Shown here piece after piece: positions 14,622 to 49,420 of a stretch of DNA of 49,420 bases. Source of the stretch: Candidatus Moraniibacteriota bacterium (GTDB taxonomy: Bacteria > Patescibacteriota > Minisyncoccia > Moranbacterales > GCA-2747515); NCBI GenBank assembly GCA_046116545.1, contig CP175956.1:1236912-1286331 (forward strand). Reading direction: 5' to 3'. Below the pieces are notes generated by a model. That model saw nothing but the letters and a program-made list of their open reading frames with translations, was not told the origin of the DNA and ran no database searches. The position numbers were made by a program, and so were the translations under genes. Each line of letters starts with the position of its first letter. The stretch's first letter is position 1.

Positions 14622-14994
14622 TATTTATAAATAATACTTTACACACCCTTTTCATTATCATGAACTTTTAATATCAAAAAAGACTCTCACTAATGCAAAA
14701 GTCTTTTGAAAGTTTATTATTCAATTTTATCTACTGCCAAAACCCACTAGCATCAGAAGTAGCAGTATAAGTTACAGACCCTGTATAAACTCCTGAAGGT
14801 TGTGATGGTGATACATCTACTTTGTAACATACATCAGTTGTTGATGAAGTTGAATTATATGCTGTGTATGCTGCTATTGCTTGAGCTGTTTGTGGTACAC
14901 CTGCATATTCTGCATCATCATTTGTTGTTCCTTCTTCACACAGATCTCCTGAGGTTGTCCATATGTTATTGAAGGTGTTATGAGTTGTATCATT

Positions 14995-15759
14995 TTGTGG
15001 AAATTGTATTACTGAGAAACCTAAACCTTTTGTTGTTGGAGCGTTCCAAGATTCTGTTACTTTTGTTGTTTGATCAAATTGTGTTAGGTCTGGTATTTCA
15101 TCTGTATTATTTGAATGTACTAGGGTTGTATTTGAAGCTCCATTATCATTTATCATTGATAGGTAGTAACCTTGGGTATCATTTGTTGTTACTATACAAG
15201 TTGATTGTCCTACTGCTGGAGTTCCTGCTATTACTATTCCTGGGTTTGCTACTGTTCCTAGTATTACATCATAATCTCCTGTTGATCCATCTTTATCATA
15301 ACAATCCATTGATAGGGTTGCATTTACTTCTACATTTAGGTTTAGGTCATCTATTCCTGATATTGTTCCATCTCCGTTTACAATATAAGTTGTTGCATGG
15401 TTTGTTGTGAATGTACATATTCCGTTTGTTACTGTACATGTTGTATGGGTATTCCATGTTACTTCTCCTTCTAGTTGTGAAAGGACTTCTAGTTCCATAT
15501 CATTGTAAGCTTCGCTTACAGTTATTTCCATTGTTATATCATTTGAGAAGGTTAGGTTTTCATTTGGTATACCTAATCTTACTGCTCCTACTGCATTTGG
15601 ATGATCTCCTCTTTCTTCATTTAATGTATTTTGGGTTATGAAGTTTTCAAAGTTGAAGTTTCCATTTAATGCTTCTGTTATCACTGTATTATTTGGGAAT
15701 ATTGCATTTGTTGTATTTGATTGGAAGGTTACTTGTACTTGGGTTGTTGTTTGGGTTGT
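14995..15759. repeat. 765-bp exact direct repeat of 46999-47763 (offset 32004)
   Basis: Compared line by line with no mismatch seen; flanks diverge. Confidence 0.92.
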
Positions 15760-16380
15760 GTTATCTATTGTTCCGTTGTCTACTGTTATGTAGCCTTCGT
15801 TTACTACATCACTCATTTCTGCGTTGTCTGGGTTTTGTATTGTTATATCTGAAACAGGCTCACTATATGGTGCTATTGGAGGTGTAAAATTACTTGTCCA
15901 TCTTGCTATTCCTTTTGAAATACGAAATTCATCCATATGACCATCAAAAGGCCTTAATGTTGAAGAAAAATATGTACCCATATACAATGGATGAACTTCT
16001 GTTGAAAAATCACCTATTACAGTTGAATATCCTGTTAACAACTGACCATCTAAAAATAAATGTAAAGTATTTCCACTACGCACAACCGCAATATGATGCC
16101 AAGTATCTAATGTTAATGCTTCTGATTCACCAAGGTGTGCTGTAGTCCAAGCCCAACCTCCAGTACCTTTATTAAAATAAAATTTATTACTTGCATCAAC
16201 ACCTAACAGCCAAATAGCACTATCATTGTATGTTCCATTATTCACAAGATGTTGTATTTTACTAGAATTTAATTTAACCCAAGTATCTATAGTAAAATCA
16301 CTATTACCAATAGCCCAATCTGTCGAACTTGGTAACTGAAGCCTGTCTGCACTTCCATCAAAAATAGCGCTCCCTGTGCC

Positions 16381-16500
16381 AAATTTCTTCTACATGCAGA
16401 TGGTTTGTATATCTCCTTGTGCATTAACAGTATGTGCAGATAAAGAATCGTCAACAAAACTTGTTGATCCATCAACACCATCTGCATGTAGAAGAAATTT
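16381..16500. repeat. 24-bp perfect inverted repeat inside a CDS (16381-16404 and 16477-16500)
   Basis: AAATTTCTTCTACATGCAGATGGT versus ACCATCTGCATGTAGAAGAAATTT, 72-nt spacer. Confidence 0.95.
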
Positions 16501-16673
16501 TGTAAACTCATCAACGCCTACAGCAATCACTGACTGTGTGAAAAAAAGTGTAACAATGAATACTACTGCGAATATACTTATATTATTTTTCATTTTTATA
16601 TTTTAGCTTTTTATTTTATAGCTTTTATTATATCACAACTTGTTTATTTGTGAAAAAATATTTTCACAACAAT

Positions 16674-16704
16674 AAAAAGCCTCTACAAATTGTAGAGGCT
16701 TTTT
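16674..16704 (-). terminator. Intrinsic terminator after fusA
   Basis: AAAAAGCCTCTACA-AAT-TGTAGAGGCTTTTT. Confidence 0.85.
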
Positions 16705-16727
16705 ATAATTTTTTGGATCAATACGAT

Positions 16728-18821
16728 CTATTCATCTTCTCCACCACCAATAATTTCTTGTGCTACATTATTTGGAACTTCAGCATAATGACTGAATTCC
16801 ATTGAATAGTTTGCTCGTCCTTGTGACATTGAGCGAAGTTGTGTTGCATAACCAAACATAGAAGCTAATGGAATTTCAGAATCAATTTCTTTCAATATTG
16901 CCATTCCCTCTCCACGATCTCGCATCTCCTTGATGATTCCACGTTTTGAGTTAACATCTCCTACTACATCACCCATAGACTCTTCTGGTGTTGTGATTTG
17001 TACAGCCATAATAGGCTCTAGTAATACTGGCTTTGCTTTCTTTACAGCAGCTTTGAAAGCCATTGAACCGGCAACTTTAAATGCAGATTCAGATGAATCA
17101 ACATCATGGTAACTACCATCATAGAGTACAACTCCAACATCTACCATAGGATATCCAGCTATTACACCATTATTCAAAGCCTCTTCGATACCTTGTCTAG
17201 TTGGCTTTATGTATTCTTGAGGTATTGCTCCACCCTTGATTTCATCTTCGAATTCAAATCCTTCTCCCTTATCTCGAGGTGCAATTCTTACCCATGCGTG
17301 ACCATATTGTCCACGACCACCTGATTGCTTTACAAATTTTCCTTCACCTTCAGCTTCCTGAGTAATTGTTTCACGATAAGATACTTGTGGCTGACCAACA
17401 TTTGCCTCAACACCAAATTCTCTTTTCATACGATCAACAATAATATCTAGATGTAATTCACCCATACCAGAAATGATAGTTTGTCCAACCTCTTCATCAG
17501 TCTTAACCTTAAATGAAGGATCTTCTTGTGCAAGCTTTCCGAGTGCCATTCCCATCTTCTCTTGATCTGCTTTTGTCTTTGGCTCTACAGCAATAGAAAT
17601 AACTGGATCTGGAAATTCAATTGACTCTAATATAACTAAATTATCTGGATCACACAAAGTATCACCAGTATTTGTATTTTTCATACCAACCAATGCTCCA
17701 ATTTCTCCAGCATTCAACTCTTCAACTTCTTCTCTATCATTTGCATGCATTCTCAAGATTCGTCCTACACGCTCTTTTTTTCCACTAGCAGTATTATAAA
17801 TATAAGAACCTGCTTGAAGTGAACCCGAATAAATACGAAAGAAAACCAATTGACCAACAAATGGATCAGTTGCAACCTTAAATGCAAGTGCTGCAAATGG
17901 TTCATCATCTGAAGCTCCTCGAGTAATCTCTTTTTCAGCATCTTTAGGATCTGTTCCTATAATAGCTGGGATTTCATTCGGTGCTGGCAAATAATCAATA
18001 ACAGCATCCAAAACTGGTTGAACACCTTTATTTTGAAGTGCAGTTCCTACAAATACTGGAATCATTGTGTTTGCAATAACGCCCTTTCGTATTGCAGCTT
18101 TTAATTCTTCATTTGTAAATTCTTCTCCGCCTAAATATTTTTCCATGAAATCATCATCTTGCTCTGCAGCTTTTTCTACCAATTTTTCTCGCCATTCTTC
18201 CGCTTGAGCTTTCAAATCTTCTGGACAATCACTTACAATAACTTTTTCCCCCATGTCTCCCTCAAAAGTAAATCGCTTCATTGTTACCAAATCAATCATT
18301 CCTTCAAAATCACCTCTCTCACCAATTGGCAATTGAGCTGCAATTGCATGAGGAGTTAATCTTTTATGAATTGAATCAAGTGCACGCTCGAAATCAGCAC
18401 CATCTTTATCTATTTTATTTATGAAACAAATACGAGGAACTTTATATTTATCAGCTTGACGCCATACAGTCTCTGACTGTGGCTCAACACCCTCTTTTCC
18501 ATCAAAAACAACAACACCACCATCTAAAACACGCATTGAACGTTCAACCTCAACTGTAAAGTCAACGTGACCTGGTGTATCAATAATATTTATTTGATAA
18601 TCCTTCCAAAAAGTTGTTGTAGCAGCAGATGTAATAGTAATACCACGCTCTTGCTCTTGCTCCATCCAGTCCATAGTAGCATCACCATCATGTACCTCAC
18701 CTATTTTATGAGACATTCCAGTGTAATACAAAACTCTTTCTGTTGTAGTAGTTTTACCCGCATCAATATGCGCAATAATACCTATATTTCTCAATTGCTC
18801 AATTGGGGTTTTCCTCGCCAT
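16728..18821 (-). CDS. fusA: Elongation factor G
   Basis: [41 protein letters not shown]. Confidence 0.99.
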
Positions 18822-18892
18822 ATATTTATTATAAATTAATTTAAATACTTTAAAATGTTATATAAATGTATCACATTTCAATTTCAATGTCA

Positions 18893-19789
18893 CTATTTCT
18901 TTTTTGACTGTTTAACTATTTTCACTTTCTTAATTTCAGGAATTGTTTTCAAAACATTTTCAGTTTCTTCTACCTGTGGATGTTTTTTGATCCAAAGTAA
19001 ATTTGCTATGAAAATTGCTATGAAAATAATAGTTGTCATGAGTGGAATATTCAATCCCAAAAACCCAACCATGAACACCACTACCGTCGGAATAAAATAC
19101 AAATTAATAACCGCTTTGTATGCAGTCATATACTTACATTCAATATCAAATATTTTCGTAAGTACAAATAGCATAAGTGCCCACCAAAACGCACTAACCA
19201 GTCTAAATACAGAAAACCAAAAAAACATAAATACTCCAAGCAAGATTGTCAGAATAATTGAAAATGGGAAGATGAAATATTTGCTTACAAATTCTAATAT
19301 ATCATCCTTTGAAACAGTAAAATTTGGAATTTCTGAAAATACTATTTGATCAAATTCTGTACCATCCTTAAAATAAGCTCTATCCCCCAGAACAATGATT
19401 CCACCATTATATTCATCTAATGATGTTAAATCATATGCATCTGAACGTGTATCAATAATAATAACAAAACTTCCATCATAACTATTATCATCACTATGAG
19501 CATTTATCTCACGGAAGAATGGCTCATCTATGTTCTGGGTTGTTAACTGTCCATCTGTTATGGTTATTTGTGCAGATTCTGGAATATCACGCTCAAGCAA
19601 AGCCACTGTATCATCATATGAATCACACAAAAACACACAAAAACCTACAGCCACCATTAAAGACAATGCTAAACTAGACAATATCCAGAATGAAATTGTT
19701 GTTTTATTGTTCTTGCATTCTCCAGCAAAAAATTTTGCCAAAAAATCAAGCTTCCAAATATCAACAAATCGCTTTAATGCTTTTTTCAT
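18893..19789 (-). CDS. Membrane protein (DUF1189-like) inside the str operon
   Basis: One N-terminal TM, an extracytoplasmic domain, then about 4 C-terminal TMs. Confidence 0.6.
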   Translation of the reverse strand: MKKALKRFVDIWKLDFLAKFFAGECKNNKTTISFWILSSLALSLMVAVGFCVFLCDSYDDTVALLERDIPESAQITITDGQLTTQNIDEPFFREINAHSDDNSYDGSFVIIIDTRSDAYDLTSLDEYNGGIIVLGDRAYFKDGTEFDQIVFSEIPNFTVSKDDILEFVSKYFIFPFSIILTILLGVFMFFWFSVFRLVSAFWWALMLFVLTKIFDIECKYMTAYKAVINLYFIPTVVVFMVGFLGLNIPLMTTIIFIAIFIANLLWIKKHPQVEETENVLKTIPEIKKVKIVKQSKKK

Positions 19790-19819
19790 AATATTGTATT
19801 TTTGTTTTATAAAAGTGAA

Positions 19820-20287
19820 CTATGCAAAATGTGCAAATGCTTTATTTGCCTCTGCCATTCTGTGAGTTTCTTCTCGCTTTTTCATTGCTAATCCTTCTTT
19901 TTCTGCTCCTGCAATAAGTTCATCAGCTAATTTTTCTGCAAAGCTTTTCCCTTTTCCTTTTCTTACAGATTCTCGTATCCAACGCATTGCAAGAGTTTGT
20001 CTTTTTTCTCCAACAACTGGTACTGGAACTTGATAATTAGCACCACCTACACGACGAGATTTCAATGCTACAAGTGGAGAAACATTTTTGATAGCTTGTT
20101 CAAAAACATTTAAACCACCCTTTTTAGTTCTCTCTTGAATAATATCAAAAGAATCATAAACTAAACGTTCAGCTATTGAACGCTTTCCATGTAAAGTAAT
20201 TTGTCCTATGAAACGACCTACCAACATATTGTTGAATTGTGGATCTGGTCGCCATGACTTTTTAAAGGTCCTCTTTCGTCTTGGCAT
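19820..20287 (-). CDS. rpsG: 30S ribosomal protein S7
   Basis: SRRVGGANYQVP...HRMAEANKAFAHF. Confidence 0.98.
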   Translation of the reverse strand: MPRRKRTFKKSWRPDPQFNNMLVGRFIGQITLHGKRSIAERLVYDSFDIIQERTKKGGLNVFEQAIKNVSPLVALKSRRVGGANYQVPVPVVGEKRQTLAMRWIRESVRKGKGKSFAEKLADELIAGAEKEGLAMKKREETHRMAEANKAFAHFA

Positions 20288-20372
20288 AAAAGTAAAAATT
20301 TAAATTTAAAATATAGTTTGAAATTTTGTATATAATTTTGACGTTAAAACGTACTAAAAGTATATATCAAAA

Positions 20373-20786
20373 TTATGCTGTTGGACGTTTTGCTCCATAC
20401 TTAGAACGACCTTGTTTACGGTCTTCAACACCAGCACAGTCCAAAACACCACGTACAACGTGATAACGTACACCTGGCAAATCTTTCACACGACCACCAC
20501 GGATCATTACGATTGAATGCTCTTGTAAGTTATGTCCTTCACCACCAATATAAGCAGTTACCTCCATTCCGTTTGTTAACTTAACACGAGCAATCTTACG
20601 AAGTGCTGAGTTAGGCTTTTTTGGTGTTGTTGTAGAAACCTTCAAACATACTCCACGCTTAAAAGGTCCTTGTGATTTAATAGGTTTATTTTTCAATGTA
20701 TTAAACACTGTTGTCATTGCCGGTGATTTAGTCTTTTTGACTTTACTCTTACGAGCCCGACGCTTCAATTGATTAATTGTAGGCAC
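20373..20786 (-). CDS. rpsL: 30S ribosomal protein S12 (GTG start)
   Basis: [27 protein letters not shown]. Confidence 0.99.
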
Positions 20787-20909
20787 AATAATAACTGTTA
20801 ATTTTAATTAAAACTTGTTTTGAGGCTACATACACCTCTAAAGCAACTCTTTTGCTTACACCCCATTACAAATATAAGCAAAAAACACTATCCGCAGATA
20901 GTTCCCATA

Positions 20910-20938
20910 TATTACACATAAAATAACAAAATGTCAAA
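20910..20938 (-). promoter_or_regulatory. Sigma70 promoter of rpsL
   Basis: Minus strand TTGACA, 17-nt spacer with extended TG, TAATAT; starts right after the upstream terminator. Confidence 0.65.
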
Positions 20939-20940
20939 CA

Positions 20941-20970
20941 AAAAAAGGAGGTCTGTATTAGCACCTCCTT
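20941..20970 (-). terminator. Intrinsic terminator of the L1-stalk RNA
   Basis: AAGGAGGU-10 nt-ACCUCCUU followed by a U tract. Confidence 0.8.
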
Positions 20971-21220
20971 CATAAATTGAGTCCTGAAACTCTTTGAAAT
21001 AAATCCATTATTAAAATCTGACTTCACTTTTCAATATGAAAGGTTGCTATTTCAAGAACGGCTCCACAATTACTAGCGTAACAGCTTCAAAGCCTCACAA
21101 CTATCCTACACATCCATATCTATCAAATTGTTAAATGCCAACAGGGATCAAACCCATTGATTACAAAATAGCCTGTTTTTCTAGACAAATTTTGCCCATG
21201 CATCTCAGAAAACTCAATTT
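20941..21220 (-). ncRNA. Candidate standalone ncRNA containing a 23S rRNA L1-stalk (H76-H78) domain
   Basis: 21120-21033 reads GAUAUGGAUGUGUAGGAUAGUUGUGAGGCUUUGAAGCUGUUACGCUAGUAAUUGUGGAGCCGUUCUUGAAAUAGCAACCUUUCAUAUU, matching 23S ~2103-2190 with compensatory changes. The 5' AAAUUGAGU pairs with 3' ACUCAAUUU. Own promoter and terminator; no flanking rRNA sequence. Confidence 0.8.
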
Positions 21221-21226
21221 AAAATT

Positions 21227-21255
21227 ATTTTATACCAAAAAATACTTTTTGTCTA
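21227..21255 (-). promoter_or_regulatory. Sigma70 promoter of the L1-stalk RNA
   Basis: TAGACA (21255-21250), 17-nt spacer, TAAAAT (21232-21227); predicted start near 21220 coincides with the 5' arm of the closing stem. Confidence 0.7.
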
Positions 21256-21282
21256 CTAAATTGCAACTGATTTTCTTTTATT

Positions 21283-22230
21283 CTACTTTTTCAAATATTC
21301 TTTTAAAGCTTCGCTATAGTGTCTTAGTCTTTCTATTTTTGTCACCTTTAGCACTGATGAACTTGGACGCTCGGCTGGACGTGAAAATGTTTCTGGTGGC
21401 ACTGGTTCTATTTTTGTATCCAATTCTGCTATTTTATAAAGTTCTTTCACTCCATCATACCAAGTGACGTCACCCTCATTTGCAACATGATAAATACCAT
21501 TTTCCGAATTACTTTCTACAATTTCTTTGCTTTTTTTTGCCAAATCTGGTGCATATGTAAATTTACTTGTCTCACTATCTACCGCCTTTACTTCATCATT
21601 ATTTTTACCAAGCTCTAACATTACATCAAAAAAACTCTTTTTCCCTGCAGCACTACTAGCTGGCTTACCAAATAACTTTGAAAGTCTAATTATATAATAA
21701 TCACCACCAATACTTTCCACATTTTCCTCACCCTTAAGCTTACTGCGACCATATTTAGAAACTGGATGACATTCATCATTTTCATGATAAGCAAAATATC
21801 CAAGTTTCTCTTCTGGTCCCATATACATACAATCTTCACATCCCTGACCACAACAACTAGGATTTCTCTTACTTCCCTTATACCTAGGACGTTTACCATC
21901 AAATACATAATCTGTTGAATAATGCACGAGTGTAATTCCAACATTTTTACAAATAACCACAAGATTCTTTGGAAGTTCTGCATTTAAGACTTTTGCCTTT
22001 TGATATTCATCTTCACTCTCTTCACATGCGTCCACTGCATTATAAGCAACAGCATTAAAAACCACATCAGGCATTTCATTTACAATAGCATTTTCCAATA
22101 ACCCTCTCTCACGTACATCAACATCATCTCTATCCCACGCAACAACCGCATAATCATCATCTTCATTAAATATTCGGACCAACTCCTGCCCAAGCATTCC
22201 TTTTGAACCTAAAATTATAACTTTTTTCAT
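21283..22230 (-). CDS. rfbD: dTDP-4-dehydrorhamnose reductase with a Cys-rich insertion
   Basis: GSKGMLG, NAVAYNAVDACE, HYSTDYVFDG, YGRSK, IIRLS, RPAERPSSSVL. Start moved to MKKVII at 22230. Confidence 0.92.
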   Translation of the reverse strand: MKKVIILGSKGMLGQELVRIFNEDDDYAVVAWDRDDVDVRERGLLENAIVNEMPDVVFNAVAYNAVDACEESEDEYQKAKVLNAELPKNLVVICKNVGITLVHYSTDYVFDGKRPRYKGSKRNPSCCGQGCEDCMYMGPEEKLGYFAYHENDECHPVSKYGRSKLKGEENVESIGGDYYIIRLSKLFGKPASSAAGKKSFFDVMLELGKNNDEVKAVDSETSKFTYAPDLAKKSKEIVESNSENGIYHVANEGDVTWYDGVKELYKIAELDTKIEPVPPETFSRPAERPSSSVLKVTKIERLRHYSEALKEYLKK

Positions 22231-22234
22231 AAAT

Positions 22235-22912: not shown

Positions 22913-22917
22913 TTAGT

Positions 22918-23451: not shown

Positions 23452-23467
23452 ATATTTACTTTTATTA

Positions 23468-23803: not shown

Positions 23804-23810
23804 ATCTTTC

Positions 23811-35681: not shown

Positions 35682-35942
35682 CTATCTTTTTCGCTTCGTT
35701 GTTTTACGTTTTGCTGTTTTTTTCTTTGCAGTTTTACGAGTTACCTTCTTCTTTGCAACTTTTTTCTTTGCAGTTTTACGAGTTGCTTTTTTCTTAGTTA
35801 CTTTCTTCTTTGCAACTTTTCTTTTTGCAGTTTTGCGAGTTGCTTTTTTCTTAGTTACTTTCTTCTTTGCAACTTTTCTTTTTGCAGTTTTGCGAGTTGC
35901 TTTCTTTTTTGTTGTTTTCTTCTTAGGTTTGCATCTTCCCAT
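35682..35942 (-). CDS. Histone H1-like (Hc2/HctB-type) Lys/Arg-rich protein
   Basis: 86 aa, mostly K/R/A/T/V; three 19-aa repeats KKKATRKTAK(R/K)KVAKKKVT; strong SD. Confidence 0.8.
   Translation of the reverse strand: MGRCKPKKKTTKKKATRKTAKRKVAKKKVTKKKATRKTAKRKVAKKKVTKKKATRKTAKKKVAKKKVTRKTAKKKTAKRKTTKRKR
35739..35909 (-). repeat. 3 x 57-nt coding tandem repeat
   Basis: Underlies the 19-aa repeat of the H1-like protein. Confidence 0.85.
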
Positions 35943-40956: not shown

Positions 40957-41067
40957 ATCTTTAATATAGTAAATAAATAATACTTCATCATTAATACTGT
41001 CTTACAGTTTATTACTGTAACATGCACACAAGATTGCTGTCAATTTTTTTAATAGAGCTTCAATAGC

Positions 41068-42318: not shown

Positions 42319-42328
42319 AACTATATCT

Positions 42329-42694: not shown

Positions 42695-42697
42695 ATG

Positions 42698-43153
42698 TTA
42701 TTTTGCTAAATTACAAAATTCTTCAGCCACTTTTTTTTGTAACTGAAACATCTCATCGCCATGTTCAAATCCCAAAAGATGTAATATCCCATGAGAATAA
42801 ACTGTAAAAAATTCTTCATCTACACTAACACTATTTTCTTGTGCAGATTCCTTAATATAATTATAACACAAAACTACCTCACCAAGGAAGACTTCACTAA
42901 TTTCCACTTCTGAAATATCATTATCATCACTATAATCCCCTATAGATATAACATCTGTAATTTCCTCTTTATTACGTAATTCTTTATTTATTTTTTTCAT
43001 TTCTTCACCTTCAACAATAGCTACACTGATGCTTAAATCAATTTCACCCTCAACAACGCCTGCAGATTCGATAGTCTCTTTGGCGATTGATGTAAGAATA
43101 TCTAAATTGTACTTATCAAATCCAAAAGAATTTAACTCTACAATAACTTCCAT
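42698..43153 (-). CDS. ybeY: rRNA maturation endoribonuclease YbeY
   Basis: TDVIS, LGEVVL, HGILHLLGFEH. Confidence 0.92.
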   Translation of the reverse strand: MEVIVELNSFGFDKYNLDILTSIAKETIESAGVVEGEIDLSISVAIVEGEEMKKINKELRNKEEITDVISIGDYSDDNDISEVEISEVFLGEVVLCYNYIKESAQENSVSVDEEFFTVYSHGILHLLGFEHGDEMFQLQKKVAEEFCNLAK

Positions 43154-43164
43154 AAAATTTAATA

Positions 43165-43617
43165 TTATGACAATGCATTTTCTACAGCACTTCTAACTAT
43201 TGCACCATCAGCATTATCACCAACTGCTTTCATTGCTATGCCCATAACTTTACCCATATCAGCTTTTGATGTTGCTCCAGCATCTTCTACTACTTTTTTC
43301 ACAATCTTTTCAATATCTTCTTTACTCATTTGTTCAGGTAAATATTTTTCAATAAATGAAATTTCTAGCTCTTCTTTTTCAGCTAATTCCTCTCGTTCGC
43401 CCTTTTTAAATTGATCTGCGCTATCTTTTCTTTGCTTTATAGCTCTTTTCACTAAAACAATAACTGAATTATCATCAAGTCCATCTTCTCTTTTGCCTTG
43501 CTCTATCTCCTCATTTTTTATCATGCTGTCTAATGCTCGCAAAGTATCTCGTTTTTCCACCTCTCTTGCTTTCATGGCACTTTTTAAATCTTCTGTTATT
43601 TGTTGTTTTAATGTCAT
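43165..43617 (-). CDS. yqeY: GatB/YqeY domain protein
   Basis: MTLKQQITEDLKSAMKA, YLPEQMS, DMGKVMG. Start moved to 43617. Confidence 0.92.
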   Translation of the reverse strand: MTLKQQITEDLKSAMKAREVEKRDTLRALDSMIKNEEIEQGKREDGLDDNSVIVLVKRAIKQRKDSADQFKKGEREELAEKEELEISFIEKYLPEQMSKEDIEKIVKKVVEDAGATSKADMGKVMGIAMKAVGDNADGAIVRSAVENALS

Positions 43618-43701
43618 ACATTTGTTTTTAAAAATATAATCTATACTCACGCACAAATATAAAAATTGCATTTGTGCGTGTAATAAATCACATAAAAGAT
43701 A

Positions 43702-43962
43702 TTAGCTTTTTTTGATTTTTTTCTTCAACTCTTTAAATGCATCATCATCAAATCGTCCAAGTTTTTTCAACTTATCAACTTCTTTTCGCATTTTGTTCTT
43801 ATAAAGAGCTTCTTGTCTACGAGCAGTTTTACTTTTTTCTCCGTTATCAAAACGGTTTCTTCGAACATGCATCAAAACACCGCTTTGTTGCATGCGGCGC
43901 GTAAAACGCTTTATCATGTTTTCAGTTGTCTCTCGATCGTCTTTTTTATATACGTAAACCAT
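43702..43962 (-). CDS. rpsU: 30S ribosomal protein S21 (long form, 86 aa)
   Basis: ETTENMIKRFTRRMQQSGVL; conserved position between hinT and yqeY; strong SD before ATG 43962. Confidence 0.85.
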   Translation of the reverse strand: MVYVYKKDDRETTENMIKRFTRRMQQSGVLMHVRRNRFDNGEKSKTARRQEALYKNKMRKEVDKLKKLGRFDDDAFKELKKKIKKS

Positions 43963-44061
43963 TAGTTCACACTCCTTTCTAAATTTAGCCACTAAATGTG
44001 GACATTTGAATAAATGTTGCATTAGAACGCTTACTCTATATCCATATTTAGATATTATTAA

Positions 44062-44421
44062 TTATTTTACTACAACAGGACTAATGTCCTCTTGCAGTTT
44101 TGCTCCACCTATTAAATGTAAATGTATATGCGGAACTTCTTGACCACCATGTTCACCTGTTCTTATAAGTAACTTATAACCACCCTCAGATATTCCTTTT
44201 TGTTTGGCAATACTAACTGCTACCTCAAACATTTCAGATATTATAGAACTATTATTTTCATCTATATCATTCATAGATTCTATGTGTCTTGTTGGAATAA
44301 TTAGAATATGAACTGGAGCAATAGGATTCACATCTGCGAATGCTATTACATTATTAGATTCATATTCTAATTTTGCTGGGATTTCTTTATCTTTAATTTT
44401 ACAAAAAATACAGTTATTCAT
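44062..44421 (-). CDS. hinT: HIT family nucleotide-binding protein
   Basis: CIFCKI, AFADVNPIAPVHILIIP, HIHLHLIGG. Confidence 0.93.
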   Translation of the reverse strand: MNNCIFCKIKDKEIPAKLEYESNNVIAFADVNPIAPVHILIIPTRHIESMNDIDENNSSIISEMFEVAVSIAKQKGISEGGYKLLIRTGEHGGQEVPHIHLHLIGGAKLQEDISPVVVK

Positions 44422-44431
44422 ATTACCATGA

Positions 44432-45832
44432 TTACTTTGTCTTTACAAGTTTTACTGTTTGCTTTAAGCCTTTTTTCACAAATGTAATTGCCTTATCTCT
44501 AGCAACTGTTTCTTGAGTTCCTGTTACCATATTTTTTACAATAACTGTTTCATCAAGAGCTTCTTGCTGTCCTATTATCAAAGTCAACTCAACTCCCAAC
44601 TTATTTGCATGACGTAATTGTTTTTGCAAAGAACCTCTACCAAAACTTTCTGCCACCAAAATTCCTGCTTGTTCAATATCTGCAAAAAGCTGTAAACTCT
44701 TTTTCTTTCCTAAATCACCAAGCTGTGCCAAAAACACTCTTGGCTGTTGCTCCTTAAATTTCTTTGCCTTAACTCTCTTCATTTCCATTATAAGCCTATC
44801 AACTCCAAAAGCAAATCCAATTGCTGGAGTAGGCTCTCCGCCAAACATTTCAATTAGACCATCAAATCTACCACCACCACCTAATGCATGTTTTTTACCA
44901 TTCTCATCATTTGAAGAAATTTCAAATACTGTACGAGTATAATAATCAAGACCTCTTACTAACTGAGGATCAATTGTATACGGTAAATTCAACTCATCTA
45001 AATATTCTAACAAGTTTTTAAAATGATCCCTTGAATCCTTATCCAAATGATCAATTGATTGTGGTGCTCCAGCACAAACCTGAATACATTTATCATCTTT
45101 TGCATCAAAAATTCTAAGTGGATTTGTGTCAATCATATCTCTGTACCTTGATGGAAGCTTGTTTTTCTTTGATCGGAAATAAGTTTTTAATAACTTCAAA
45201 TAATCTTTACGAGATTCTGTTGTCCCAATTGAGTTTACACTAAATTGAATATTTTTAATTCCAAGACTAGTTAGAACTCTATAAGCAATTTGCATAACCT
45301 GTGCATCTAGAATTGGGTCCTCTTCACCAAAAATATCAAATTCTGCTTGATGAAATTCCCTATATCTTCCCTCTTGAGGTCTGTCATACCTATATGCTGG
45401 CCCTATAGAAAATAACTTGACAGGTTTTGGCAAAATCATCATTCCATGTTGTATATATGCCCTTGCAATGGAAGCTGTCATCTCTGGTCGAAGTGCTACT
45501 TTGTCACCACCTTTTGTACGAAATGAATACATTTCATTATCTACAATATCTGTACCTATTCCAATAGGTCGAGTAAATATATTTTCAAATTCTATGATTG
45601 GTGTATCTATTCTAGAAAATCCATATTCAGTTGCTCTCTTTTCAAATACTTTACGAATTTGTTGCCAATAAGCTTGATCTCCTGGTAAAATATCACGCAT
45701 TCCACGAACTGTTTGCAATACCAACTGTTCTTCAGATTTAACTCTTTTTGTGGCTCTTTTTTTAGCATTTACTGCATTCTTCGTAGTGCTTTTTTTTGTA
45801 GCACTTTTCTTAGTTGCTTTCTTTTTTGCCAT
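44432..45832 (-). CDS. hisS: Histidyl-tRNA synthetase with a basic N-terminal extension
   Basis: RGMRD, LRPEMTAS, YRYDRPQEGRYREFHQ, RGLDYYT, GGGGRFDGL. Confidence 0.97.
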   Translation of the reverse strand: MAKKKATKKSATKKSTTKNAVNAKKRATKRVKSEEQLVLQTVRGMRDILPGDQAYWQQIRKVFEKRATEYGFSRIDTPIIEFENIFTRPIGIGTDIVDNEMYSFRTKGGDKVALRPEMTASIARAYIQHGMMILPKPVKLFSIGPAYRYDRPQEGRYREFHQAEFDIFGEEDPILDAQVMQIAYRVLTSLGIKNIQFSVNSIGTTESRKDYLKLLKTYFRSKKNKLPSRYRDMIDTNPLRIFDAKDDKCIQVCAGAPQSIDHLDKDSRDHFKNLLEYLDELNLPYTIDPQLVRGLDYYTRTVFEISSNDENGKKHALGGGGRFDGLIEMFGGEPTPAIGFAFGVDRLIMEMKRVKAKKFKEQQPRVFLAQLGDLGKKKSLQLFADIEQAGILVAESFGRGSLQKQLRHANKLGVELTLIIGQQEALDETVIVKNMVTGTQETVARDKAITFVKKGLKQTVKLVKTK

Positions 45833-45883
45833 AATATGAAATCTTTACCAAATTAACTTATTAACAACTCTAGGCTTCAATCC

Positions 45884-46486
45884 TTAATTAAAAATTGTTA
45901 CATCATTCAACGGCCAAGCTCTCAATAGAACTTTTCCAATTACATCGTTCTTGGACAACGGTCCAAATGACCGAGAGTCACTACTTGCTGGACGATTATC
46001 CCCAAGCACATAGTATTCATCATCTGCAATAATTACTTTTCTACTTCCATTTGTTTTCCTTCCTTCTGGAAGATACTCTTGTTCTAATATTTTTCCATTT
46101 GGATTCTCATCATTATAAATTGTAACCTCTCCACTCTCTACTTCAATAGTTTCTCCAGGCAATCCAACAACACGCTTGATATAATATTGCTTATCATTAT
46201 TTGGAGCCCTAAATACCACAATATCATTTCTTTCGAGTGTTTTACGAGGAGTAACTGTAATAATATCTTTTCCAAAAATATTTACTGGAGTATTCTTGTA
46301 ACCAAATTCATTTATTATTAAATATTGCTTTTCGCTGAAATTTGGCTCCATGCTTGCACCTCTTACAATAAAAGGTTGAAACAAAAACATTCTTACAGGC
46401 ACAATAATTATAAGTGCCAAAAAAAACATCTTTACTACCTCTATTATGAAATCTTTCATACTTTCTTGTTCTTGCTCTTCTATCAT
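45884..46486 (-). CDS. lepB: Signal peptidase I
   Basis: GASMEP, YIKRVVGLPGE, GDNRPASSDSR. Start moved to MIEEQ. Confidence 0.95.
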   Translation of the reverse strand: MIEEQEQESMKDFIIEVVKMFFLALIIIVPVRMFLFQPFIVRGASMEPNFSEKQYLIINEFGYKNTPVNIFGKDIITVTPRKTLERNDIVVFRAPNNDKQYYIKRVVGLPGETIEVESGEVTIYNDENPNGKILEQEYLPEGRKTNGSRKVIIADDEYYVLGDNRPASSDSRSFGPLSKNDVIGKVLLRAWPLNDVTIFN

Positions 46487-46734
46487 ATTTTTACTTGTCT
46501 CACCCCAACTCACTAGGAGCAATGATGGATTTATTTTTATATCAATAAATGTAGTTATTTACTGCATTTTCAGAAGTATTAAAACCACAAACTTGCTCTA
46601 TTGTAACATAAATTTACACTCTTCGCAACCTCAATCACCATGTCATAAATATTATTGCAATTCTAAAAAATAATCACTCCTCTAAAAGTAAATTCAAAGG
46701 AGTAATCAATTTAATATTGTTTTAAGTTTTTTAT

Positions 46735-49263
46735 CTACTGATAAAACCCACTAGCATCCGAAGTAGCAGTATAAGTTACAGACCCTGTATAAACTCCTGA
46801 AGGTTGTGATGGTGATACATCTACTTTGTAACACACATCAGTTGTTGTTGAAGTTGAATGATATGCTGTATGAGCTGCTATTGCTTGATCTGTTTGTGGT
46901 ACACCTGCGTAGTCAGCGTCATCTGATGTTATTCCTTCTTCGCAAAGGTTTCCTGAGATTGTCCATATTCCATCAAACGTATTATTTGTTGTATCTGCTT
47001 GTGGAAATTGTATTACTGAGAAACCTAAACCTTTTGTTGTTGGAGCGTTCCAAGATTCTGTTACTTTTGTTGTTTGATCAAATTGTGTTAGGTCTGGTAT
47101 TTCATCTGTATTATTTGAATGTACTAGGGTTGTATTTGAAGCTCCATTATCATTTATCATTGATAGGTAGTAACCTTGGGTATCATTTGTTGTTACTATA
47201 CAAGTTGATTGTCCTACTGCTGGAGTTCCTGCTATTACTATTCCTGGGTTTGCTACTGTTCCTAGTATTACATCATAATCTCCTGTTGATCCATCTTTAT
47301 CATAACAATCCATTGATAGGGTTGCATTTACTTCTACATTTAGGTTTAGGTCATCTATTCCTGATATTGTTCCATCTCCGTTTACAATATAAGTTGTTGC
47401 ATGGTTTGTTGTGAATGTACATATTCCGTTTGTTACTGTACATGTTGTATGGGTATTCCATGTTACTTCTCCTTCTAGTTGTGAAAGGACTTCTAGTTCC
47501 ATATCATTGTAAGCTTCGCTTACAGTTATTTCCATTGTTATATCATTTGAGAAGGTTAGGTTTTCATTTGGTATACCTAATCTTACTGCTCCTACTGCAT
47601 TTGGATGATCTCCTCTTTCTTCATTTAATGTATTTTGGGTTATGAAGTTTTCAAAGTTGAAGTTTCCATTTAATGCTTCTGTTATCACTGTATTATTTGG
47701 GAATATTGCATTTGTTGTATTTGATTGGAAGGTTACTTGTACTTGGGTTGTTGTTTGGGTTGTATTATCTATTGTTCCGTTGTCTACTGAGATGTAGTTA
47801 TTTGTTACCACATCTTGTATGTTAGCATTGTCTGGATCTTCTATTGTTATTTGAGTTACTGCTGTTGTTGTGAAGTTTGTTTCACTTCCATACGATGTTC
47901 CTTCTGAGTTTGTTGCTTTTGATCTTACATAGTATGTTGTGTTTCCTGTTAATCCTGTTATATCACAAGAGTAAATACCTGTTCCTCCTGTGCCTGCTGT
48001 ACACTCATTTGTATAAGTTCCACTTATTGTTCCCCATTCTATGAATCTTTCTGGATCTTCTCCTCCTGTGTTTGTTATGTTTCCATTACCCGTTGCTATT
48101 GTTTCTGTTATGTCTATTGTTGAGTTTGTTGTTGTGGTTGGGGTTGATATTGATGATACATAGTCTGCTATATCTATTATTAACATGTTATCTGAATCAT
48201 AACCAACAGCGTATGCATAATTTCCAACAACAATAATTTGTCTTGTATCATTTATTATATTAGTATCATTTGGATCCCAATTAGCTGCTAGTGTTGGATT
48301 TGCTGGATTGGAAATATCTACTATTACCATATTATCTGAAACTCTCCCAGCAATATATGCATAATCCCCAGCTACGGTAACAGACCAAGTTTCCTCTAGA
48401 ATATTAAGGTCATTTGGAATAAAATTTCCTGTTATTGTTGGGTTTGATGGATTGGAGACATCTATTATTGCCATATTATCTGAATATCTTCCCACAACAT
48501 ATGCATAATCTCCAAGCACCTTTACATCCCATGGACAATCCATAACATTAGTATTATTTGGAGCCCAATTAGCGGTTAGCGTTGGATTTGATGGATTGGA
48601 AATATCTAATACTACCATATTATCTGAGTCCCAACCTACAGCATATGCATAATTTCCAATTACATTTACTGACACTGATCCATTCATAATATTAAGATCA
48701 TTTGGATCCCAATTAGCTGCTAGTGTTGGATTTGCTGGATTGGAAATATCTACTATTACTATATTGTTAGAATACCTTCCTGCAATATATGCATAATTTC
48801 CTACAACATCTATATCCCATCCACCATTCATAATATTAAGATCATTTGGATCCCAATTAGCTGCTAGTGTTGGATTTGATGGATTGGAAATATCTACTAT
48901 TGCCATATTATTAGAATACCATCCCACAATATATGCATAATTTCCATTAATTGCTACAGATGCTGATCCATTCATAATATTAGTATCATTTGGATCCCAA
49001 TTAGCTGTTAGCGTTGGATTTGCTGGATTGGAAATATTTACTATTGCCATATTATTAGATATTCTTCCCGTAACATACGCATAATTTCCATCAACTGTCA
49101 CAGAAGAAGCTGCATTCATTGTATTAGCATCATTTGGATCCCAATTAGCTGCTAGTGTAGGGGCAGCAAATACTGACTGTGTCATTACAAAAAAAACAAA
49201 AAATCCAGATATCATAAAAATACCCAAACTTAGCTTCTCTTGTACGAGAAAATTCTTTATCAT
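46735..49263 (-). CDS. Secreted modular surface protein: signal peptide, 7 LVIVD repeats, FN3-like domain, shared C-terminal module
   Basis: Seven ~48-aa repeats (PTLAANWDPND...GNYAY....NM.IVDISNP); YYVRSKATN FN3-like motif; C-terminal ~370 aa shared with 14731-16593. Confidence 0.9.
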   Translation of the reverse strand: MIKNFLVQEKLSLGIFMISGFFVFFVMTQSVFAAPTLAANWDPNDANTMNAASSVTVDGNYAYVTGRISNNMAIVNISNPANPTLTANWDPNDTNIMNGSASVAINGNYAYIVGWYSNNMAIVDISNPSNPTLAANWDPNDLNIMNGGWDIDVVGNYAYIAGRYSNNIVIVDISNPANPTLAANWDPNDLNIMNGSVSVNVIGNYAYAVGWDSDNMVVLDISNPSNPTLTANWAPNNTNVMDCPWDVKVLGDYAYVVGRYSDNMAIIDVSNPSNPTITGNFIPNDLNILEETWSVTVAGDYAYIAGRVSDNMVIVDISNPANPTLAANWDPNDTNIINDTRQIIVVGNYAYAVGYDSDNMLIIDIADYVSSISTPTTTTNSTIDITETIATGNGNITNTGGEDPERFIEWGTISGTYTNECTAGTGGTGIYSCDITGLTGNTTYYVRSKATNSEGTSYGSETNFTTTAVTQITIEDPDNANIQDVVTNNYISVDNGTIDNTTQTTTQVQVTFQSNTTNAIFPNNTVITEALNGNFNFENFITQNTLNEERGDHPNAVGAVRLGIPNENLTFSNDITMEITVSEAYNDMELEVLSQLEGEVTWNTHTTCTVTNGICTFTTNHATTYIVNGDGTISGIDDLNLNVEVNATLSMDCYDKDGSTGDYDVILGTVANPGIVIAGTPAVGQSTCIVTTNDTQGYYLSMINDNGASNTTLVHSNNTDEIPDLTQFDQTTKVTESWNAPTTKGLGFSVIQFPQADTTNNTFDGIWTISGNLCEEGITSDDADYAGVPQTDQAIAAHTAYHSTSTTTDVCYKVDVSPSQPSGVYTGSVTYTATSDASGFYQ
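46999..47763. repeat. 765-bp exact direct repeat of 14995-15759
   Basis: Line-by-line comparison. Confidence 0.92.
48166..49161 (-). repeat. 7 x ~144-nt coding repeats (LVIVD, probable beta-propeller)
   Basis: Visible at both DNA and protein level. Confidence 0.85.
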
Positions 49264-49420
49264 ATTTTTATTTTAACTTTTTATTTTATGACTTTTATTA
49301 TATCACATGTAATCACATTTACAAAAAATAGCATTCTGTCAATCGGTTCAAATATCGCAAGATTTCCGGTTCAGGGTAATAGAAAAAAATACCCATTTAA
49401 AGAAATTTTTTAAGCTGCTC

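Follow-up and report, generated by a model that had tools for sequence, protein, structure and literature searches.

Polymerisation by donor-strand exchange has been established by cryo-EM for two pilus systems, the Pam pili (PMC13278184) and the WxL/Elr pili (10.64898/2026.10.17.759780). Here we describe genes I and J, found in a 49,420-nt window (the whole stretch of DNA that was analysed) and belonging to a family of ten genes (labelled A-J) in the 1.29-Mb genome of a very small, uncultured Candidatus Moraniibacteriota (CPR) bacterium, the products of which share a C-terminal module ending in a predicted pilin-like domain.

The ten-gene family and its two members in the window

The sharing of sequence between genes I and J (Table 1) described in the initial annotation is real and was understated: a genome-wide search for the shared module returned ten genes rather than two, with at least seven types of N-terminal head. 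These are LVIVD and LamG (one gene each), FG-GAP and EPTP (two each), Fib_succ_major (FISUMP; one), Gly-rich (two, paralog D and the broken paralog B) and one unknown. Eight of the ten copies, which are scattered along the chromosome, are intact, the exceptions being gene I, with an in-frame TAG, and paralog B, with two frameshifts. As read from the sequences, the protein plan would comprise a signal peptide, a variable and putatively ligand-binding head, in some members a spacer resembling FN3, and a C-module of ~372 aa that is conserved, at 80–96% identity, among the ten paralogs.

Gene I had been taken for an open frame, which is not the case, as codon 68 is TAG; the adjoining EF-G gene terminates with TAG, which shows that this codon is a stop in this genome. 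The codon lies in a five-residue patch, TICM* in the present assembly, for which allele P0002 of another assembly, intact and 620 aa long, has INTAE. The LamG assignment (Pfam Laminin_G_3, E 8e-15) and the similar signal-peptide ends of genes I and J (TQSVIA and TQSVFA, read from the translations) hold. For gene J, described as seven LVIVD repeats plus FN3, the seven repeats are legible directly, with Pfam matching six stretches (E 4.6e-59), but for the FN3-like spacer both the fn3 and the Pur_ac_phosph_N matches are below the Pfam threshold. Residues 390–842 of gene J match paralogs F, G and A at 81–85%.

Likeness in the 47 nt upstream was also recovered, at 40/47 positions before the ATG (gap-free) rather than the 42/47 first given, and 49/56 positions are identical between 16582-16637 and 49252-49307. 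Both genes have the extended -10 TGaTATAAT, and in the promoter and terminator-like hairpin scans, which covered these two genes of the window, the TG-extended site ranks first among the promoter-like sites of the coding strand of each. In the 1.29 Mb the 47-mer occurs only four times at ≤11 mismatches, each time preceding a family member, and a TGnTATAAT/TATACT-type site of its own precedes each of the eight copies whose upstream region can be aligned.

Table 1. Features of genes I and J and of the DNA that they share
Feature	Position	Strand	Basis or remark
Gene I: signal peptide, LamG head, shared C-module	14731..16593	-	Translation; Laminin_G_3 E 8.4e-15; TAG-interrupted as assembled
In-frame TAG, codon 68, inside LamG head of gene I	16390..16392	-	Translation
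Signal peptide, gene I, MKNNISIFAVVFIVTLFFTQSVIA	16522..16593	-	Type also in paralogs F, G, H
LamG (concanavalin-like lectin) head, gene I	15880..16521	-	Pfam PF13385, PF02210
Domain 1, gene I; candidate self-cleavage triplet H-A-T at 15391-15399	15361..15858	-	AlphaFold2 model of J copy; motif invariance
Linker DDLNLNVEV, gene I, candidate donor strand	15325..15351	-	Monomer model; alignment to small CPR pilin-like proteins
Domain 2, gene I, C-terminal, Ig-like, pilin-like, ends GSVTYTATSDASGFWQ	14734..15324	-	Model, fold match, alignments
Terminator-like hairpin 3' of gene I	14678..14707	-	Hairpin scan; common to paralog E
Promoter-like site, gene I: -35 TTCACA, TG-extended -10 TATAAT, AT-rich leader	16582..16654	-	11/12 matches, TG present
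765-bp identical block	14995..15759	-	= 46999-47763; most also identical in paralog D (D-I, D-J runs)
Diverged patch, 32 differences I vs J	14830..14994 (J: 46834-46998)	-	Alignment
Gene J: signal peptide, seven LVIVD repeats, FN3-like domain, shared C-module	46735..49263	-	Intact, 842 aa
LVIVD beta-propeller head, gene J: seven 48-residue repeats, 144-nt period	48135..49164	-	PF08309 E 4.6e-59
FN3-like spacer, gene J	47860..48096	-	Also in paralogs A, F, G
Domain 1, gene J; H-A-T at 47395-47403	47365..47862	-	Structure model, motif
Linker DDLNLNVEV, gene J, candidate donor strand	47329..47355	-	Model, alignment
Domain 2, gene J, pilin-like Ig domain, ends GSVTYTATSDASGFYQ	46738..47328	-	Model, fold match, alignments
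Terminator-like hairpin 3' of gene J	46671..46708	-	Hairpin scan
Promoter-like site and leader, gene J: -35 TTGTAA, TG-extended -10 TATAAT	49252..49324	-	Promoter scan

The two domains of the C-module

The ~370-aa module had been described as a single beta-sandwich, whereas the whole-module model (pLDDT 89.7) shows two domains, the first with a motif of self-cleavage type, joined by a flexible linker (residues 170–177, pLDDT <50). Modelled alone with AlphaFold2, domain 1 of the J copy is a beta-sandwich of 13 strands with two helices (pLDDT 95.5, pTM 0.89), which carries at its last beta-turn a near-invariant W..C..C.F.T.H-A-(T/S) motif, the H-A-T forming the turn that joins the last two strands. 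The 41 family members compared all have C141, C148, F150, T152, H154, A155, T156 and Y158, and among 124 representatives at ≤50% identity, F150 is present in 124, W135 in 123 and H in 119, with T (112) or S (12) at the nucleophile position, in agreement with the HX(S/T) rule of GAIN/MAIN. Domain 1, present in 681 representative clusters, is located between heads and varied C-terminal ends, which may be PG_binding_1, pilin-like, or a transmembrane segment followed by a basic tail. We infer from the motif that it may be a cis-autoproteolytic joint of the GAIN/MAIN/ZU5 type; the fold match is unconfirmed. Foldseek against the PDB returned nothing at E≤0.001, its 50 top-ranking matches include no GAIN structure, and over the full length the closest is a ZU5 domain (TM 0.32–0.34). 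The candidate cut, in the turn preceding the last strand, would separate the Ala of H-A-T from the Thr, and a head cleaved in this way would be held non-covalently only and could be shed under force.

The sequence of domain 2 has no match in Pfam, NCBIfam or the PDB, and the whole module gives weak fold matches to chaperone-usher pilins, namely CfaB (probability 0.99, TM 0.51), Csu and the PapG pilin domain. Domain 2 is also found as stand-alone secreted proteins of 205–231 aa in Moraniibacteriota, Berkelbacteria and Saccharibacteria, which in related CPR genomes adjoin membrane-anchored chaperone-like proteins of the DUF916/PamC type: in 31 related genomes ~22 of the 27 PF06030 matches (10 of which exceed the Pfam cut-off) are at most ~1 kb from a domain-2 gene. 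The second chaperone domain, PF11797, gave no match in Pfam scans of the CPR chaperone-like proteins. The genome studied here has a single chaperone-like gene, located ~120 bp downstream of paralog G, the product of which scores 18.6–21.7 bits against PF06030, under the cut-off of 27.3. The linker DDLNLNVEV, disordered in the monomer model, is a candidate donor strand and can be aligned to the N-terminal strands that small CPR pilin-like proteins have in their mature form; this genome contains no small stand-alone pilin gene, so that a conventional fibre built on a major subunit could not be made. Of the earlier designation "WxL/pilin-like", the second half can be kept, on the basis of the chaperone-adjoining domain 2 proteins and the weak fold matches, and the first half was rejected, since PF13731 gave no match and profile-profile comparison with ElrD-type WxL pilins a probability of 0.3%.

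We consider it unlikely that the module is a passive wall anchor, with monomeric domain 2 binding peptidoglycan or an envelope polymer as in the classical WxL model, and domain 1 a spacer with non-catalytic His and Thr. PG_binding_1, a true wall-binding domain, succeeds domain 1 in other CPR proteins, which therefore puts domain 2 in the wall-anchor position, and the lack of both a GAIN fold match and a small pilin also fits such an anchor. A simple binder, however, needs none of the membrane-anchored chaperone-like genes that nearly always adjoin domain-2 genes in relatives; furthermore, the monomer model leaves the conserved strand ahead of domain 2 without structure, the related Pam and Elr systems were seen by cryo-EM to polymerise, and a nucleophile position that alternates between T and S, with H retained in 96% of representatives, is typical of a catalytic site.

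Heads, module and gene conversion

The proposal of interchangeable binding domains on a common scaffold is valid at the evolutionary level, at least seven types of head being combined with one module, but nothing points to programmed cassette switching. That silent or alternative cassettes are moved into an expression site, with heads or module patches switched within physiological times as in antigenic or phase variation proper, appears improbable, even though both gene ends are common (promoter, leader and signal peptide on one side, the 3' module on the other), the two broken copies are possible donors, and alleles from different assemblies differ by patches copied from other paralogs. Eight genes are complete, the eight copies that can be aligned upstream each have their own site, the scattered copies form no archive beside one expression site, and the heads are old lineages with orthologues elsewhere, identical in the alleles compared. 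No promoterless archive of silent cassettes was seen, and beside the two genes of the window neither a recombinase gene nor a site specific for recombination was noticed.

Between genes I and J, 14725-15846 and 46729-47850 are 95.1% identical across 1,123 columns. The reported succession of a mismatch-free block, a diverged patch and a near-identical end was reproduced by alignment, the longest identical run being exactly 765 bp, and the last ~100 bp having only three differences; the module's 5' edge accounts for a further 20. The diverged patch, which falls in a domain 2 stretch without predicted strands (residues 286–316 of the module model), has two groups of haplotypes, one carried by D, E, F, G and I, the other, in variant forms, by A, B, C, H and J.

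Recent gene conversion had been deduced from this mosaic, and the extended comparison strongly supports repeated, patchy conversion that homogenises the module DNA and, in part, the promoter, leader and signal-peptide DNA. Polymorphic sites in the ten modules form mosaic haplotype blocks with sharp borders, common to defined subsets of copies; PHI is 0.357 versus 0.494 ± 0.007 in permutations (p<0.001), identical tracts exceed permuted lengths in 27 of 45 copy pairs (p<0.002), and 48% of the informative site pairs cannot be fitted to one tree. For the same gene pairs dS is 0.17–0.27 in the module versus 0.78–0.83 in the heads, i.e., 3–4.5 times lower, and this reduction extends along the entire module, beyond the identical block. 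The modules group by genome, in clades with 100% support, and in three independent complete genomes they are uniform inside each genome versus 51–61% identical between genomes; heads are orthologous across genomes (51–66% identical) and represent old, separately evolving lineages. Alleles found in other assemblies do not differ in their heads (0/197 and 0/530 differences), but their modules have 10–16 differences, of which 10/10, 15/16 and 6/11 equal other paralogs of this genome.

An assembly artefact, whereby collapsed or chimeric repeats or multi-mapping polishing reads produced the 765-bp identity and the mosaic, is very improbable. The module is a 10-copy repeat within which related short-read MAGs break, many loci starting or ending there, the odd five-codon patch with TAG in gene I resembles a local consensus problem, and the alleles of other assemblies might themselves be chimeric; against this, head and flanks are distinct for every copy in a single closed contig of 1.29 Mb, the sharp-edged blocks in defined copy subsets are not random identity, the contrast between uniformity within and divergence between genomes recurs in the three independent genomes, and dS is lowered along the full module. 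Purifying selection alone, keeping modules alike without DNA exchange, would account for the many invariant residues but is refuted by the 3–4.5-fold lower synonymous divergence, by 765 bp identical even at synonymous sites, by the incompatible site pairs and significant PHI, and by genome-wise clustering of modules and not of heads.

Proposed function and comparison with donor-strand pili

As a whole, the reading that we favour, and regard as moderately probable, is that of Sec-secreted modular surface adhesins with a conversion-homogenised module, a self-cleaving joint and a chaperone-handled pilin-like domain. Genes I and J would be two of ten individually transcribed paralogs for such adhesins, in which domain 2 and the preceding strand LNLNVEV may constitute a donor-strand type pilin module of a CPR family, handled by membrane-anchored chaperones with two Ig domains (DUF916/WxLIP-like, PamC/D-like). 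The chaperone-like protein encoded downstream of paralog G would hold or polymerise all ten at the cell surface, and the proposed selective reason for the uniformity of the module is that every copy must fit this same partner, possibly other copies too. If so, the varied heads would represent a repertoire of attachment specificities, and attachment to a host cell, as suggested in the initial annotation, is plausible. The occurrence of domain 2 as stand-alone proteins beside DUF916/PamC-type chaperones suggests, by analogy, that the family works in the manner of the Pam and WxL donor-strand pili.

The family of surface adhesins and its members in the window

The window represents the last 49 kb of a single contig of 1,286,331 bp (33% G+C), and a genome-wide tblastn search with the shared C-terminal module revealed ten copies of this module, all located on the minus strand and sharing 80-96% amino-acid identity. 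The two paralogs described in the initial annotation are therefore members of a larger family, designated here A to J, of which I and J lie in the window (see the table below). In all ten paralogs, as in more than 50 homologues, a variable N-terminal payload is followed by a pilin-type domain in the last position. The common orientation of the copies was considered as a potentially meaningful feature and rejected: as 74% of the long ORFs of the genome are found on the minus strand, it is unremarkable (p ~0.05). The plus strand dominates only in a block at approximately 500-700 kb of the genome, and the cumulative GC skew declines monotonically from one end of the 1.29-Mb contig to the other, without forming a V.

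Adhesin paralogs and further features; positions are those of the window unless marked otherwise
Feature	Position	Strand	Description
A		minus	Fib_succ_major lectin-like domain and FN3-like domain
B	genome 36599-39577	minus	Signal peptide, Gly-rich head; ~990 aa; two frameshifts, broken
C, H		minus	Cadherin-like domain and seven EPTP repeats
D		minus	Gly-rich head
E		minus	Head of unknown type
F, G		minus	FG-GAP propeller and FN3-like domain
I	14731-16593	minus	LamG head; frame interrupted by in-frame TAG at codon 68 (16390-16392); ORF list holds a 504-aa remnant only
J	46735-49263	minus	LVIVD propeller and FN3-like domain; open frame, 842 aa
Run of 765 identical bases, I and J	14995-15759 (I); 46999-47763 (J)		Within the shared 3' region
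Diverged patch, I and J	14830-14994 (I); 46834-46998 (J)		Within the shared 3' region
Direct-repeat array	35688-35926		15/27/42-nt repeats
Copy resembling the array	45777-45828		52 nt
Repeated element	49366-49420; genome ~1194-1250		5' of J; ~100 nt downstream of A
Chaperone-like gene	genome 1076882-1077928		343 aa; 18.6-21.7 bits with PF06030, below the cut-off of 27.3
Membrane protein gene, related genome G018	L045:1748-2587		279 aa, between two chaperone-like genes

The heads proposed for the two window genes were recovered by Pfam (LVIVD in J and Laminin_G_3 in I), the seven LVIVD repeats of J being directly readable. Gene I, initially described as a whole gene, proved on translation to be closed by an in-frame TAG, and this codon is a normal stop in the genome, since the EF-G gene located directly upstream terminates with GGEDE-TAG. 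Comparison with P0002, an intact 620-aa allele from another assembly, places the TAG inside a patch of five codons, reading TICM followed by the stop in place of INTAE. An exact-pattern scan of metagenome contigs for the DNA of P0002 returned nothing, and no DNA-level orthologue of the LamG head was found in any of the relatives examined. The second broken copy is paralog B, in which one of the frameshifts is a 2-bp loss inside GTAGACAACGGAACAATAGAT and the module is still 96% identical to that of J.

The two window genes possess independent promoter-like and terminator-like sites: in both, the best promoter-like site is a TG-extended TATAAT, and a terminator-like hairpin is found downstream of each. 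Their upstream regions share 56 nt at 87.5% identity, which agrees with the similarity previously reported for the 47 nt before the ATG, the ungapped count being 40/47 rather than 42/47. When up to 11 mismatches are allowed, the 47-nt promoter/leader of gene I occurs in the genome only before I, J, G and A, with weaker matches preceding F, E and B. No RNA families were found in the window with Rfam.

Other repeated sequences were also observed in the window. The probable product of a dense array of direct repeats (TTCTTCTTTGCAACTTTT...), read on the minus strand, is a low-complexity segment rich in Lys and Ala, and a shorter copy located elsewhere in the window resembles the array. The segment 5' of gene J (gagcagcttaaaaaatttctttaaatgggtattttttt...) resembles another one downstream of paralog A, and the two have the appearance of a repeated element of terminator type; should the contig be circular, paralog A would be the neighbour of J across the contig ends. 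In related short-read MAGs (L012, L019, L021, L023, L024, L026-L032) many contigs begin or end within the C-terminal module, which is multi-copy and assembly-breaking in those MAGs, and the family sizes obtained from them are therefore underestimated. Several family members typical of Moraniibacteriota (L006, L009, L015, L016 and L023) are present in a MAG deposited as 'Micavibrio sp.' (DYDB01), and it looks as if either the organism has been mislabelled or sequences of several organisms have been binned together.

Concerted evolution of the module

The 3' regions of I and J are 95.1% identical over 1,123 aligned columns and, as had been claimed, include a zero-mismatch block of exactly 765 bp and a diverged patch, the differences outside the block comprising 20 at the 5' edge, 32 in the patch and 3 in the last ~100 bp. 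When the 534 variable columns of all ten 3' regions are displayed as a mosaic, haplotype blocks are found to be common to changing subsets of copies, D, I and J being identical in the centre, and a further block being common to A and H and in part also to E. The diverged patch separates the copies into two haplotype groups, one haplotype being present in D, E, F, G and I and variants of the second in A, B, C, H and J. In domain 2, this patch corresponds to a segment for which no strands are predicted, and it might mark two compatibility or antigenic types.

The pairwise homoplasy index was 0.357, as compared with 0.494 +/- 0.007 in 1,000 permutations, 48% of informative site pairs were incompatible, and identical tracts were longer than permuted ones in 27 of the 45 pairs (p<0.002). 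For F/G and C/H, the two pairs with alignable heads to which the comparison was limited, dS reached 0.78 and 0.83 in the heads and only 0.17 and 0.27 in the modules, respectively; as it is far lower in the modules, their uniformity exists at the DNA level and is not only selective. An assembly artefact is unlikely and could at most account for how long the identical block is; the pattern as a whole lies beyond the reach of this explanation.

Among 5.8 billion proteins searched, numerous proteins carrying the module belong to two further complete genomes of 1.18 and 1.55 Mb, where its identity is no higher than 51-61%. Maximum-likelihood analysis groups the modules by genome, with support of 100/100 for the genome studied here and 100/99 for the second genome. 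For the heads, by contrast, evident counterparts exist across genomes (FG-GAP at 55-61%, EPTP at 65-66%, LVIVD at 51% and FISUMP at 53%). Judged by these sequence comparisons, the lineages of the heads are old, whereas homogenisation has acted on the modules inside each genome.

Among the alleles present in other assemblies, that of E has none of 197 head positions changed and 10 module differences, all of which equal paralog J, and that of G has no differences in 530 head positions and 11 in the module. In the allele of I, head differences are confined to the TAG patch, and 15 of its 16 module differences are found in other paralogs. As short-read chimerism may affect these alleles, they are regarded as supporting and not as decisive. 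A programmed switching system is not supported.

The signal peptides belong to two types which are independent of the head type, those of C and H differing although the heads of these two are orthologous; because the type of signal peptide is unlinked to that of the head, the 5' end has been exchanged among copies as well. The gene conversion initially proposed is thus borne out by the mosaics, the homoplasy index, dS, the genome-wise clades of modules and the alleles. The mosaic structure of the tracts, the lowered dS and the grouping of paralogs by genome mark concerted evolution of the module, which in part extends to the 5' end. This is a clean case, in which divergent old heads are kept separate and the module is homogenised per genome, which makes the family well suited to work on the role of partner compatibility in the shaping of multigene families.

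The two domains of the module and their candidate partners

The AlphaFold2 model of the module, built from an alignment of 43 sequences, is a confident one (pLDDT 89.7) and comprises domain 1 (residues 1-161), a linker (residues 170-177 of which are below pLDDT 50) and domain 2 (182-375). The beta-sandwich scaffold initially envisaged is resolved into two domains connected by a linker. Modelled alone, domain 1 has 13 strands and 2 short helices (pLDDT 95.5, pTM 0.89). Residues C141, C148, F150, T152, H154, A155, T156 and Y158 are shared without exception by 41 homologues, and in the model H154-A155-T156 forms the turn between the last two strands (147-154 and 157-161). A profile search of 1.84 billion representative proteins located domain 1 in 681 clusters, 124 of which cover the motif: the His is kept in 119 and the following Ala in 121, the third position is Thr in 112 and Ser in 12, W135 is retained in 123 and F150 in all 124. 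The motif is thus near-invariant, with H-A-(T/S) in 116 and H-x-(T/S) in 119 of the 124 representatives. Beyond domain 1, the C-terminal ends in relatives are PG_binding_1, a membrane helix with a basic tail or other pilin-like ends; in the family described here domain 1 is followed by domain 2, with the signal peptide and heads preceding domain 1. Odd tails were observed in some of the domain-1 proteins of other metagenomes (P0120, P0121, P0123, P0134, P0151, P0156 and P0168 among them), reading ...KK(C)FLWWC(W/F/Y) or, in others, ...WWNP(A/F)TWF, and such tails might represent signals for sorting or anchoring at the C-terminus that have yet to be described.

The sequence of domain 1 matched nothing in Pfam, NCBIfam or PDB, and a Foldseek search of its model against PDB gave no hits at E<=0.001 and no GAIN entry among the best 50, the best domain-wide match being the ZU5 structure 3f59_C with a TM score of 0.32-0.34. 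Some ZU5-like domains are able to cleave themselves at an HFS-type site, as in autoproteolysis of the ZU5/FIIND type. Domain 1 was also considered as a MAIN domain, one of the microbial GAIN-like autoproteolytic domains (Brogan & Rudner, 10.64898/2026.05.12.724683), and this assignment was rejected because Foldseek failed to recover the GAIN fold, so that it is classed only as MAIN-like in action. From the model and the conserved motif, domain 1 appears rather more likely to work like a GAIN/MAIN/ZU5 joint, and to cleave itself, than to lack this activity.

Domain 2 likewise has no sequence match in Pfam, NCBIfam or PDB. The suggestion that it is a WxL domain fails in all of the sequence tests applied: PF13731 has no match at E<=10 genome-wide or in domain 2 itself, hhalign of domain 2 against 17 ElrD-type WxL proteins yields a probability of 0.3%, and hmmsearch against ElrD gives 0.4 bits. 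The positions of the WxL motifs read Y-Y-L (Y-x-L) and T-Y-T, not W-x-L. A resemblance of xTxNDxxGYxLS to ITDNRGTLEGWTLS, and of YTGSVTYTAT to YKTTITWTLA, was discarded as evidence because neither Pfam nor hhalign supported it. The better Foldseek matches of the two-domain model included CfaB (probability 0.99, TM 0.51), Csu, the PapG pilin domain, CfaE-chaperone and the TasA fibre, with TM scores that are low overall.

The stretch preceding domain 2, DDLNLNVEV-NATLSMDC, can be aligned with the mature N-termini of small proteins (QVNLQVTV, DVNLEVEV and TVNLNVQV) and is unstructured in the monomer model, as would be expected for a candidate donor strand with no groove available in cis. A GAIN/MAIN-type self-cleavage motif located directly before a candidate donor strand would constitute a new pairing, none having been described in the literature compared.

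In other genomes, domain 2 is encountered in the form of secreted proteins of 186-231 aa: in a Moraniibacteriota MAG (L011), in Berkelbacteria (L025), in Saccharibacteria (L034) and in related genomes (L045 and L046). These small proteins alternate with larger ones of ~300-335 aa that combine a signal peptide and Ig-like domains with a C-terminal membrane helix and basic tail. The larger proteins match Pfam WxLIP_PGBD (DUF916), the highest score being 41.6 bits (cut-off, 27.3). Small pilin-like proteins from chaperone-pilin loci of Saccharibacteria match the domain-2 profile at 38-39 bits. Across 31 related genomes, domain 2 was found in 16 and a chaperone-like protein in 13, and approximately 22 of 27 chaperone-like matches lie within ~1 kb of a domain-2 gene, as read by eye from the coordinates. 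PF06030 exceeded its cut-off in ten matches from 9 of the 31 genomes, as well as in one Berkelbacteria locus; most of these proteins are encoded less than 1 kb from domain-2 genes and all have the C-terminal membrane helix. PF11797, the second chaperone domain, had no match in Pfam scans of the CPR chaperone-like proteins at E up to 1 or 10.

In the genome studied here the chaperone-like gene is present in a single copy, ~120 bp downstream of paralog G. The genome contains no head-less small pilin; no LPxTG base subunit is found near the loci, the one sortase gene is distant, and a crude scan produced no convincing LPxTG substrates. As read from gene neighbourhoods in the relatives, the context of domain 2 is that of a putative chaperone-pilin system. 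The pilin-like character initially suggested is thus retained through this context and pilin fold matches of low TM, whereas homology to WxL sequences is not. Overall, the original observation was confirmed and extended to ten copies, and its interpretation stands in part. In the membrane protein encoded between two chaperone-like genes of the L045 pilin locus, an acidic segment accompanies a CarboxypepD_reg-like domain; this protein may also take part in assembly or anchoring.

Proposed mechanism and comparison with known systems

We infer a mechanism in which the adhesins would be exported by Sec, domain 1 would cleave itself at H-A|T, and docking or polymerisation would proceed by donor-strand complementation involving the single chaperone-like membrane protein. 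Compatibility with this partner would be the reason for homogenisation of the module, and the heads would serve as host- or surface-binding units. A bolder version, in which the ten adhesins are themselves subunits of a mixed poly-adhesive fibre with no major pilin, seems unlikely to us. Here, cleavage at H-A|T would free an N-terminus only 16 residues before LNLNVEV, and the strand of the head-bearing subunit would then enter domain 2 of the next one, with the single DUF916/PamC-type chaperone priming the subunits and anchoring the chain. Attachment of the heads would depend only on non-covalent contacts of the last strand of domain 1, so that they could be shed under load, and gene conversion would keep the ten donor strands and ten acceptor grooves compatible. 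If true, this arrangement would join MAIN joints, the Pam pili of CPR and the WxL pili of Bacillota in one ancient display machinery independent of an outer membrane.

By the prevailing view, attachment to host cells is the way of life of CPR bacteria, and to our knowledge the mechanism of this attachment is largely unknown. The ten heads, including lectin-like, several beta-propeller and glycine-rich ones, displayed on one module, constitute a candidate attachment repertoire, and ten adhesins are a large investment for a 1.29-Mb genome.

The principle of donor-strand pilins with membrane chaperones was published in 2026 for the Pam pili of Saccharibacteria (PMC13278184) and for the WxL/Elr pili of Bacillota, a survey of the Elr system having reported it from this phylum only (10.64898/2026.10.17.759780). 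The loci described here suggest that the principle may also operate in Moraniibacteriota and Berkelbacteria. In the solved structure of the Pam pili of a Saccharibacterium, pilins consist of a beta-sandwich, a linker donor strand and a truncated Ig-like domain; the system includes the pilins PamA/PamB, the membrane-anchored chaperones PamC/PamD and the tip PamT, has no usher, and was reported for the most part from Saccharimonadia and Microgenomatia (Troman et al., bioRxiv 2026, PMC13278184). Compared by description only, the C-terminal module has the same order of beta-sandwich, linker strand and Ig-like C-terminal domain, and both systems occur in CPR bacteria, use Sec signal peptides and have neither an usher nor an outer membrane. 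Putative chaperones of the Pam-like design, with two Ig-like domains and a C-terminal helix in the membrane, are encoded beside pilin-like proteins in L011, L025, L034, L045 and L046, and beside G in the genome studied here. In contrast with Pam, the present module carries large and varied N-terminal heads, its domain 1 has 13 strands instead of 9 and bears the H-A-T self-cleavage-type motif, the genome has no head-less major pilin, and the chaperone-like proteins of the lineage match Pfam DUF916/WxLIP_PGBD.

The WxL (Elr) pili combine WxL pilins, the DUF916/DUF3324 membrane chaperone ElrE and modular tip adhesins (Sleutel et al., 10.64898/2026.10.17.759780; Hassan et al. 2023, PMC10599100). 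The loci resemble them in comprising small secreted single-domain subunits together with large proteins that carry a varied payload and end with the same C-terminal domain, and in having a partner with two Ig domains, a C-terminal membrane helix and a PF06030 match. They differ in that domain 2 lies outside Pfam WxL, PF11797 matches and a nearby LPxTG base subunit are absent, and the adhesin genes are dispersed and located outside an operon.

With regard to MAIN proteins and to the GAIN/GPS region of adhesion GPCRs, autoproteolysis follows an HX(S/T) rule with Ser and Thr interchangeable, and typical MAIN proteins, defined operationally by iterated sequence search with the MAIN domain of B. 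subtilis YfkN, average 158 kDa and come from named phyla that do not include CPR (10.64898/2026.05.12.724683). The likeness lies in the order of signal peptide, adhesion heads, beta-sandwich and surface anchor, in the predicted fold of 13 strands and 2 short helices, and in the HX(S/T) motif placed in the turn before the last strand, with Trp and two Cys just upstream as in the GPS motif. Unlike in those proteins, X is Ala and not a large hydrophobic residue, the anchors are CPR-specific, and no sequence or Foldseek link to GAIN structures was detected; at 570-900 aa, the present proteins are also smaller than those with MAIN domains.

Concerted evolution of adhesin genes with shared 5' and 3' ends and a divergent ligand-binding middle is known from babA/babB/babC and sabA/sabB of Helicobacter pylori, where, as here, patchy conversion between dispersed copies leads to mosaics and strain differences. 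The present family differs in having ten copies and structurally unrelated heads, in that the homogenised part is a two-domain C-terminal module and not an outer-membrane barrel, and in that, in the alleles seen, conversion alters the shared module and not the binding head. With a domain outside Pfam WxL, a domain 1 unlike the N-terminal domain of Pam and bearing a cleavage-type motif, dispersed and homogenised genes and no head-less pilin, it differs from all three of the Pam, WxL/Elr and MAIN systems, the designs of which it would, by analogy, combine.
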